32,000 nucleotides of DNA from Candidatus Freyarchaeum deiterrae (GTDB lineage: Archaea > Asgardarchaeota > Jordiarchaeia > Jordiarchaeales > Jordiarchaeaceae). The notes beneath the pieces were generated by a model. The model was not told where the DNA came from and ran no database searches. It saw only the letters and a program-made list of their open reading frames with translations. A program made the position numbers and the translations under genes. The stretch covers positions 1,452,259 to 1,484,258 of the forward strand of contig CP147778.1 of NCBI GenBank assembly GCA_037305845.1, given 5' to 3'. Below, piece by piece: positions 1 through 782 of the stretch (positions are counted from its first letter, which is position 1; the number at the start of each line of letters is the position of its first letter).

Positions 1-782
1 TTGATGTCCTAGACCCCGTGAACCCGTGTGAACCATTACGGTAACCTGATTCTCACTTAATCCTAAGACCTTGGCTGCGTCTTGATCAAAAATTTTCTCT
101 ACGTATTGAATCTCGAGAAAATGATTACCTGCCCCTAATGTTCCCACTTGGGCAACCCCTCTCTCCTTTGCTTTGCTTGACACTTTTGAAGTGTTCGCTC
201 CCTCCAATTTTCCATTCGCTTCGCAGTTTAAAGCGTCCTCTTCCCATCCGAAACCGTTTTTAATAGACCAGCTAACGCCCTCGGAAAGAATTCCGTCCAA
301 GTCTCTAGCTGAGAGTTTAATTTTTCTCTTAGATCCCAAACCACTAGGCACATTATCAAACATTTCTTTTGTTAACTCTTTTATCTTGGATTCAGCGTCC
401 TTCCTCTCAAGATTGGTTTTAATCACTCTAACACCGCAATTGATATCATACCCAACCCCGCCGGGACTTACAACTCCGTTGTCCTCAATATCAGTAGCGG
501 CTACTCCGCCTATTGGAAAACCGTAGCCCTGATGAGCTTCCCTCAGTAGAGGACATCCTCTCCTGAATCGGGCAGGGTTACGGAGAATTTTTTTATGCCT
601 GGCAGGCTGCATACGTTAACGGCTTGGATTAGAGTTTGATCCTTATAAATATCTTTAAGCAATACCTCGTTTGCAATAATTCTGGCTGGAACCCTCATGT
701 AGGGTCGATAATCTTTAGGAATCTCCCAAATGTTTTTATTAATCTGCTTAAGAGGAATATTTCTTGTACTCAAAACAATCAC
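1..782 (-). CDS. rtcB: RNA-splicing ligase RtcB, 5' part of the gene (continues past the left edge). Proposed exons are 782..567 and 537..1, separated by a 29-nt insert.
   Basis: Minus-strand translation 782->567 gives MIVLSTRNIPLKQINKNIWEIPKDYRPYMRVPARIIANEVLL...NVCSLPGIKKFSVTLPD. Translation 537->1, in a different frame, gives [43 protein letters not shown]...GAGNHFLEIQYVEKIF...VMVHTGSRGLGHQ. These are hallmark RtcB motifs, and the frame stays open to position 1. Confidence 0.85.
538..566 (-). other. Putative BHB-type mini-intron (29 nt) in the rtcB pre-mRNA
   Basis: RNA reads CCCG-AU|U-CAGGAGAGG-AUGU-CCUCUACUG-AGGG-AA|G. The inner helix is 9 bp with one G.A mismatch. The central helix is CCC/GGG plus one G.A pair, flanked by 3-nt bulges on opposite strands. 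Cutting after the 2nd bulge nucleotide removes 29 nt, including a UGA and the frameshift, and gives ...[17 protein letters not shown]. Confidence 0.55.

Follow-up and report, generated by a model that had tools for sequence, protein, structure and literature searches.

The window analyzed here is the whole 32,000-nucleotide (nt) stretch of Candidatus Freyarchaeum deiterrae DNA whose first lines are given above (lineage Archaea; Promethearchaeati, i.e., Asgard; Jordarchaeia; Jordarchaeales; Jordarchaeaceae). Its left end carries, on the minus strand, rtcB, the gene for the RNA ligase RtcB, and the reading frame of this gene is interrupted by 29 nt at positions 538–566. We judge this insert, at a probability of roughly 85%, to be a relaxed bulge-helix-bulge (BHB) intron lying within the coding sequence, one that would be cut out by the tRNA-splicing endonuclease EndA and whose exons would be joined by RtcB. 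The initial annotation had also proposed a relaxed BHB intron; it is supported by the fixed site of the insert, a structure that is kept, selection at the level of RNA, purifying selection on the exons, and sister introns in two other genes.

The interrupted rtcB gene and the fold of its insert

rtcB runs off the start of the window, and the break in its frame falls between the codons for Asp and Ala in the motif PD-A-HQGYG. The first open reading frame (ORF), from a TTG at 773 or a GTG at 782, reads ...IKKFSVTLPD and then SGEDVLY before a UGA stop at 545–543, whereas the second part of the protein (...GYDINCG...HTGSRGLGHQ) continues in another frame from 537. The insert is exactly 29 nt (566..538, UCAGGAGAGGAUGUCCUCUACUGAGGGAA), lies between GAU (569–567) and GCU (537–535), and holds the UGA that ends the unspliced frame. 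Its removal in silico joins GAU to GCU and yields an intact RtcB of 485 amino acids, which matches the Pfam RtcB family (E 2e-75) and aligns without gaps across the junction to the solved RtcB of Pyrococcus horikoshii (E 7e-92). Translation and in-silico deletion thus bear out the coordinates and frames first described, including the loss of both frameshift and UGA, and the alignment agrees with the statement that homologues such as that of Pyrococcus lack the insert.

Exon 1 (567–773, minus strand; 69 codons, ending ...SVTLPD) probably starts at TTG 773–771, which is preceded by a Shine-Dalgarno-like GAGGUGAU at 785–778; the ORF list starts at GTG 782, but rtcB of relatives likewise has a TTG start, after GGAG or GGAGGUGA. 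Exon 2 (1–537, minus strand) is cut by the window edge; at its full length of 416 codons it ends ...RPLGVVKG in loci L173 and L174. The whole gene is available in two assemblies, and all codons of the spliced 485-amino-acid ORF are intact there; the initial annotation had named other pseudogene lesions as evidence that would count against an intron, and there are none. The predicted spliced RNA would read ...CCCGAU|GCUCAUCAGGG... at the junction or, with longer flanks, ...GUAACCCUGCCCGAU|GCUCAUCAGGGCUACGG....

The minimum-free-energy (MFE) fold of positions 600..510 (−28.9 kcal/mol, z = −2.3) consists, outermost first, of an exon-exon helix (CCGUA.CCCUG with CAGGG.UACGG), the pairs CCC:GGG, a 3-nt bulge on the 5' strand, the hairpin UCAG.AGAGG-AUGU-CCUCU.CUGA, and an 8-nt bulge on the 3' strand. 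Expressed as BHB elements, all on the minus strand, the outer helix comprises CCGUAACCCUG (573–583, codons Ser-Val-Thr-Leu) and CAGGGCUACGG (521–531, codons Gln-Gly-Tyr-Gly); the central helix pairs CCCG (569–572, comprising the Pro codon CCC and the first letter, G, of the Asp codon) with AGGG (540–543); and the inner hairpin (544–565) is made of CAGGAGAGG, the loop AUGU, and CCUCUACUG, with nine pairs including one G.A. The 5' bulge AU|U occupies 566–568 and the 3' bulge AA|G 537–539; in the MFE fold the latter reaches 532 (8 nt, AAGCUCAU). BHB elements are cut after the second nucleotide of each bulge, a rule that was cross-checked by reasoning from the canonical tRNA 37/38 intron and that predicts cuts at 567|566 and 538|537. 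The strand order of outer helix, central helix, bulge, and inner helix matches the canonical tRNA 37/38 geometry, a comparison that was reasoned from established tRNA numbering rather than computed.

The elements initially named at this site are all present, namely CCCG/AGGG with one G.A pair, the bulges AU|U and AA|G, a 9-bp inner stem with a single mismatch, and the loop AUGU. The further statement that the outer helix is poor holds only in the register that adjoins the 3-nt 3' bulge, whereas a strong 11-bp exon-exon helix lies 5 nt further out and is part of the MFE fold. A strictly canonical conformer would have the 3-nt 3' bulge followed by a 2-bp helix (G-C, U-A/G); this hBHBh' form was rejected as the ground state because it is 4–8 kcal/mol less stable than the fold with the 8-nt bulge, and the 3' site is thus best described as lying inside an enlarged bulge. 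As modeled, therefore, the insert fits the relaxed BHB class and not the strict hBHBh' type.

The fold alone proves little because loose versions of the motif are common: 1048 matches with at least 3/4 central and at least 8/9 inner pairs were found on both strands of the window, against a simulated mean of 935. Generic BHB pattern scans with ORF-joining filters gave 149–1048 matches, which is too noisy for intron discovery, and they were used solely for the chance rate; a loose motif would fall at the exact pair of cuts restoring the protein with a chance of ~1048/(64000 x 41), or ~4e-4. Much stronger evidence than this figure comes from the comparison of loci.

Conservation of the insert and of its pairing

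Insert-bearing rtcB DNA was gathered from species-representative genomes, metagenomes, and exact-protein look-ups, yielding 12 distinct Jordarchaeaceae loci, among them Candidatus Jordarchaeum madagascariense (L001) and a Jordarchaeia metagenome-assembled genome (L002); the metagenome scan supplied at least two of the intron-bearing rtcB loci among the matches listed, the rest being distant RtcBs. In all 12, the insert is at the same site, between GAY and GCN. It measures 28 nt in L166, 29 nt in this window, and 30 nt in the other ten, and the frame relation of the two ORFs consequently differs between loci, yet cuts placed by the BHB rule join GAY to GCN and restore PD-A-HQGYG every time (12/12). 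The 156 other rtcB loci are uninterrupted and read (P/S/A/T)D-x-H-x-GYG; they include two Jordarchaeales genomes (L003 and L004) and two related metagenome contigs (L083 and L084), all at 63% identity. The comparison of related loci suggested in the initial annotation therefore finds an insert that is conserved, with covarying pairs, in 12/12 Jordarchaeaceae loci and absent from 156 others. At the protein level, the 25 nearest RtcB homologues (80–93% identity; those that are named are Candidatus Jordarchaeaceae) are all 394–419 amino acids long, contain only the part after the junction, and start M/V-R-E-A-HQGYG, and full-length RtcB proteins appear only at ≤63% identity.

An identical 121-nt segment spanning the insert occurs in three Logan assemblies from three different runs, which disposes of the assembly artefact that had been raised as a possible refutation. 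A search of the window for copies of the insert, as expected of a repeat or mobile element, returned only the insert itself, and a promoter and terminator scan around it gave nothing relevant. An IS605 OrfB/TnpB (Cas12f-like) gene lies ~1.3 kb downstream of rtcB in one relative (L170, 4076–4260).

Judging from Nei-Gojobori ratios of nonsynonymous to synonymous change (dN/dS), both rtcB exons are under strong purifying selection: the ratio is 0.03–0.06 for exon 2 and 0.06–0.16 for exon 1, with a proportion of synonymous differences (pS) of up to 0.7. The low value for the downstream ORF also holds among three lineages that have no start codon there.

The structure named above, with 11 outer, four central, and nine inner pairs, was tested on the 12-sequence alignment. 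Standard pairs fill 88.9% of the cells, as opposed to 34–45% when the 3' partner is slid by 1–3 columns, and independent MFE folds have the same architecture in 11 of the 12 sequences. CCC:GGG is invariant throughout, as is the Pro codon CCC (12/12 each); the fourth central pair is G-C in seven loci (CCCG:CGGG) and G.A in five (CCCG:AGGG), including this window. The 5' bulge is 3 nt long in all 12, its third nucleotide being U, C, or A. Pairing reaches 93% of cells in the outer helix, which is set back 5 nt from the canonical position, and 83% in the inner stem, whose loop is free in both sequence and length (3–5 nt). Three pairs changed on both sides, compensatory changes being seen in the outer helix and at two pairs of the inner hairpin, and the covariation score of 0.086 (0.064 in shuffles) was reached by 3/500 shuffles. 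By these measures, what is conserved is the structure rather than the insert sequence or its coding capacity.

In the same alignment, the degenerate third positions show RNA-level selection on the exon nucleotides that would pair. When the count, which was made by hand from the table, is limited to codons with a conserved amino acid, these positions are invariant in 6/6 paired codons but in only 5/48 unpaired ones (Fisher one-sided p = 1.8e-5). The six are Ser UCC, Val GUA, Thr ACC, Leu CUG (third letter), Pro CCC, and Tyr UAC, whereas the unpaired codons at the junction (GAY, GCN, CAY, and the following GGN) all vary. A seventh site covaries: columns 14 and 61, synonymous in Leu and Gln, read CUG:CAG in nine loci, UUG:CAG in L082, and UUG:CAA in L002 and L171, i.e., a C-G pair became U-A by way of the wobble intermediate U.G.

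Sister inserts and rival explanations

Truncated Pfam matches of ORFs in the window, missing the N-terminus, led to two further inserts, both on the minus strand. In cbf5 (exons 31189–31414 and 30372–31156), a putative canonical hBHBh' intron of 32 nt lies at 31157–31188: exon 1 ends ...GGGACACUAG, the insert is A-ACUCCUC-UAGCAUUUUGC-GAGGAGU-AGUG-AA, and exon 2 starts AUCCCAAAG. Its outer helix is GGGA:UCCC, its central helix CACU:AGUG, its bulges AG|A and AA|A, and its inner stem ACUCCUC:GAGGAGU. It splits the codon of the catalytic Asp as G|AU, so that GAU is present only after splicing; the crenarchaeal cbf5 intron occupies the identical site, between letters 1 and 2 of this codon (PMC2738675). 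The cbf5 intron recurs in L176, L177, and L178 (31–32 nt) with several compensatory stem changes read by eye. Close Cbf5 homologues are all truncated (239–262 amino acids), full-length proteins being found at ≤72% identity in Baldr-, Odin-, Hod-, and Helarchaeia.

The gatE insert (19902–19931, between exons 19932–20207 and 18258–19901) is 30 nt long and contains an in-frame UAG; its central helix is GAUG:CAUC, its bulges are AA|A and AA|A, and its inner stem is CUUGCA:UGCAAG. Its removal gives TYEIDE-TPPFDIS and a 639-amino-acid GatE, and it is 100% identical in L176 and L177 although the flanking synonymous sites differ. Both the cbf5 and the gatE insert have perfect 4-bp central helices and 3-nt bulges, and neither has a start codon at the junction. 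Together with that of rtcB they make up a homogeneous class: all are 28–32 nt long, have 4 bp in the central helix and 6–9 bp in the inner stem, and share the 3' bulge AA|N. Gene calls are missing for the main body of gatE in L176 (15351–17016) and for cbf5 in L178 (3570–5119), though tblastn finds the coding sequence in each.

Several observations weigh against an intron in rtcB. The 3' bulge is 3 nt long only in the less stable canonical conformer, and the central helix of this window includes a G.A pair; cleavage would therefore need a tolerant EndA. The close relationship of the sequences keeps the covariation modest. The complementarity of the outer helix is partly due to the amino acids, S-(I/V)-(A/T)-L and Q-G-Y-G being by nature roughly reverse-complementary at the codon level, and intronless loci accordingly form a mean of 7.0/11 pairs versus 4.5 in controls. 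Only 5/156 intronless loci reach 10/11 outer-helix pairs, and the Jordarchaeales loci L003, L004, and L083 (locus positions ~3180–3215), which are the nearest intronless relatives, have 10/11; given such pre-existing complementarity, the outer helix alone is no evidence, but the frozen and covarying synonymous sites are. A hairpin already in place may have favored the gain of the intron, or the hairpin may be a remnant left after intron loss. A weaker point is that no spliced or intronless close form of rtcB was found among the protein homologues or cluster members, and a second rtcB may be present elsewhere in the genomes. The last points of this kind are two features of the insert itself: a GAGG-like element stands 9–11 nt upstream of an ATG in 5/12 loci, and the C/A change in (C/A)GGG leaves Arg unaltered (CGG/AGG) when read in the frame of the second ORF.

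These two features are what would be expected if rtcB were a split gene with a stop, a ribosome-binding site (RBS), and a start in one cassette, encoding two polypeptides that assemble, one of ~70–79 amino acids ending ...LPD(S/T/P) and one of ~418 starting M-R-E-A-HQGYG. Gene callers annotate the locus exactly so, and an ATG, GTG, or TTG stands just before (C/A)GG GAA GCN in 7/12 loci, often overlapping the stop region of the first ORF. However, the codon heading the second ORF is ATG in five loci, GTG in one, TTG in one, CTG in three (this window among them), CCG in one, and ACG in one; that 5/12 loci lack ATG, GTG, or TTG while the dN/dS of the downstream ORF is ~0.05 speaks against a split gene. 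The hairpin moreover sequesters the putative RBS and start, and a split gene leaves unexplained the CCC:GGG pairs, the frozen or covarying sites of the exon-exon helix, and the exact homologous spacing that follows from cuts by the BHB rule. It is also impossible for the sister inserts, which have no junction start and, in cbf5, divide the Asp codon, and we regard it as improbable for rtcB. A translational event, either a programmed frameshift or ribosome bypassing from GAY over the hairpin to GCN, seems to us more doubtful still. Bypassing would cope with gaps of 28–30 nt, makes use of a hairpin with a stop close by, and would lead to an identical protein; L170 has GAU directly ahead of GCN, matching the take-off Asp codon; and the mevalonate kinase gene of this lineage contains what appears to be a conserved site of +1 frameshifting. 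Frameshifting is nevertheless excluded by offsets that differ between loci (28, 29, and 30 nt) and by the 10/12 inserts that are in frame with an internal stop. As for bypassing, the take-off and landing triplets are mismatched (GAY versus GAA) in 11/12 loci, and the stop does not directly follow take-off, being displaced by one codon in 11 loci and by eight in this window. Because the GAU of cbf5 is absent from the unspliced RNA, neither bypassing nor a split gene can rescue that gene, and we know of no archaeal precedent of translational bypassing.

That the locus is simply dead or artefactual, i.e., a pseudogene with a small palindromic insertion or an assembly error, is effectively refuted. 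Its ORF is of course interrupted and the available data show no intact copy, but the insert is identical in the three independent assemblies and is found in 12 diverged lineages from many samples; the exon 2 dN/dS is low, with a pS of up to 0.7, the 485 codons carry no other lesion, and the insert is unique in the window. An intein or a group I or II intron was rejected because the insert is far too small and has neither an ORF nor a ribozyme, and recoding of the stop as selenocysteine or pyrrolysine because the frames differ between loci.

The mevalonate kinase gene mentioned above has its frameshift site at 25007–25046 on the minus strand, with a T8 run at 25007–25014. The canonical N-terminus MVTASAPGKVIFF runs into CGG UGA, and it is the +1 frame that encodes the remainder (GEHAVVYGEP...). 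Four further Jordarchaeia loci (L176 ~9956, L177 ~9926, L178 ~10028, and L179 ~6073) have the 21-nt GTTATTTTTTTTCGGTGAACA unchanged, whereas neighboring synonymous sites vary. This pattern suggests a programmed +1 frameshift that is conserved (UUU_CGG_UGA read as UUC GGU GAA), or slippage during transcription, rather than a sequencing error. Mevalonate kinase homologues from Jordarchaeia and Freyarchaeia (P0143–P0145, P0153, P0157, P0170, and P0172) have 206–231 amino acids at ~70% query cover; such short proteins may mark further interruptions, whether introns or frameshifts, in other lineages.

Proposed splicing of rtcB, precedents, and meaning

If the rtcB insert is an intron, the pre-mRNA would fold into a rod of an 11-bp exon-exon helix, a 4-bp central helix (CCCG:AGGG) flanked by the splice-site bulges, and the intron hairpin. 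EndA would cut at 567|566 and 538|537, leaving 2',3'-cyclic phosphate and 5'-OH ends, and RtcB would then join GAU to GCU to give the mRNA for the 485-amino-acid RtcB (...LPD-A-HQGYG...), whereas unspliced mRNA would yield only an N-terminal fragment of 78–79 amino acids. We infer both enzymatic steps and the exact cut sites from the sequence. RtcB is, to our knowledge, the only archaeal ligase for 2',3'-cyclic phosphate and 5'-OH ends, and, unless there is a second ligase gene, it follows logically that RtcB has to join the exons of its own mRNA. The cell thus probably needs working RtcB to make more RtcB; new enzyme would arise only where RtcB activity is already present, and the protein would have to be inherited at cell division. 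This self-dependence may have a regulatory use, or the insertion may be a selfish or neutral one that is tolerated.

The 32-kb window contains no EndA gene. Four Asgard genomes that have been examined encode an (alpha-beta)2 EndA with an L1 loop, which is associated with cleavage of relaxed motifs (PMC5829648), and in related Asgard classes 92–95% of tRNA genes have introns, often several per gene and at non-canonical sites (PMC11291895). On the plus strand of the window, an unannotated tRNA-Ser(GGA) with encoded CCA (30140–30284) appears to have three introns, with probable boundaries at 30160–30179 in the D-loop (20 nt), 30188–30213 in the anticodon stem (26 nt), and 30222–30233 at position 37/38 (12 nt); two of the three are at non-canonical positions. 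Neither ARAGORN nor Rfam (at gathering thresholds) gave a match on the unspliced window, and ARAGORN gave none on 14 related loci; without the three stretches, the sequence is recognized by ARAGORN as a clean tRNA-Ser(gga) of 87 nt. Note that brute-force removal of intron combinations was ambiguous, and the clean tRNA came from a parse by hand. If this tRNA is correctly read, the host EndA would be able to cut relaxed motifs.

The BHB intron of crenarchaeal cbf5 was reportedly described by Watanabe et al. in 2002, and Yokobori et al. treated it in 2009 (PMC2738675). Like that of rtcB, it is short (tens of nt), lies in coding sequence, has a relaxed BHB, interrupts a conserved catalytic-site motif, and is restricted to a lineage with intronless relatives; its hosts are said to have a hetero-oligomeric EndA of broad specificity (PMC2738675). 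The differences are that the host gene here is the ligase of the pathway itself, that the lineage is Asgard (Jordarchaeaceae), and that the 3' site is in the 8-nt bulge of the most stable fold. Archaeal tRNA introns (hBHBh' or relaxed HBh'/BHL) share the inferred enzymes EndA and RtcB, the cut rule, and the size range, but in rtcB the substrate is an mRNA, and the exon-exon helix is made of codons and kept via synonymous sites. Outside the archaea, HAC1/XBP1 mRNA is cleaved by Ire1 and ligated by Trl1 in yeast and by RTCB in metazoa. It resembles the rtcB case in the removal, independent of the spliceosome, of a short intron bounded by stem-loops, with a change of frame and, in animals, exon ligation by RTCB; it differs in its nuclease and recognition motif, in being regulated by stress, and in that the ligase is not the product of the spliced mRNA. 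In T4 gene 60, too, full-length protein is made from an ORF interrupted by a short non-coding stretch that contains a hairpin and a stop, but its bypassing is ribosomal and not at the RNA level, needs matched take-off and landing codons that are absent here, and would leave the cbf5 case unexplained. The intron in the 5' untranslated region (UTR) of Haloferax volcanii HVO_1309 is likewise a BHB element of an mRNA and is cleaved by EndA (PMC7714728); it is in a UTR, interrupts no frame, and has experimental support, whereas the rtcB intron is predicted from sequence. As of 2020, that 5' UTR case and cbf5 were described as the only BHB introns in archaeal mRNA (PMC7714728), and no report of an rtcB intron or an Asgard mRNA intron was found in the searchable literature. 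Mechanistically, the rtcB intron is a cbf5-type archaeal pre-mRNA intron; what sets it apart is that its host gene is the ligase of the pathway and that it is one of three coding-sequence introns in 32 kb.

BHB inserts defeat standard annotation, and these genomes are currently annotated with truncated RtcB, Cbf5, and GatE. If confirmed, the rtcB intron would add a new host gene for BHB introns in coding sequence and extend the phenomenon into the Asgard archaea. It would also constitute a self-referential circuit that poses a problem of bootstrapping and inheritance and might serve to control the splicing of all tRNAs and mRNAs. Seen alongside the introns of cbf5 and gatE and the tRNA with three, all within 32 kb, it would suggest that protein genes of this lineage are interrupted far more often than has been thought for archaea, which bears on the origin both of interrupted genes and of mRNA splicing by tRNA-splicing enzymes (cf. 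HAC1/XBP1). We put forward tentatively, at somewhat less than even odds, the broader idea that Jordarchaeaceae have BHB introns in many protein-coding genes (~3/30 in the window: rtcB, gatE, and cbf5) and that RtcB acts as an autocatalytic gatekeeper, licensing its own synthesis along with that of core translation and RNA-modification genes. If true, this would be a system of interrupted genes that is based on protein enzymes and independent of the spliceosome, in a member of the archaeal group thought to be closest to eukaryotes.

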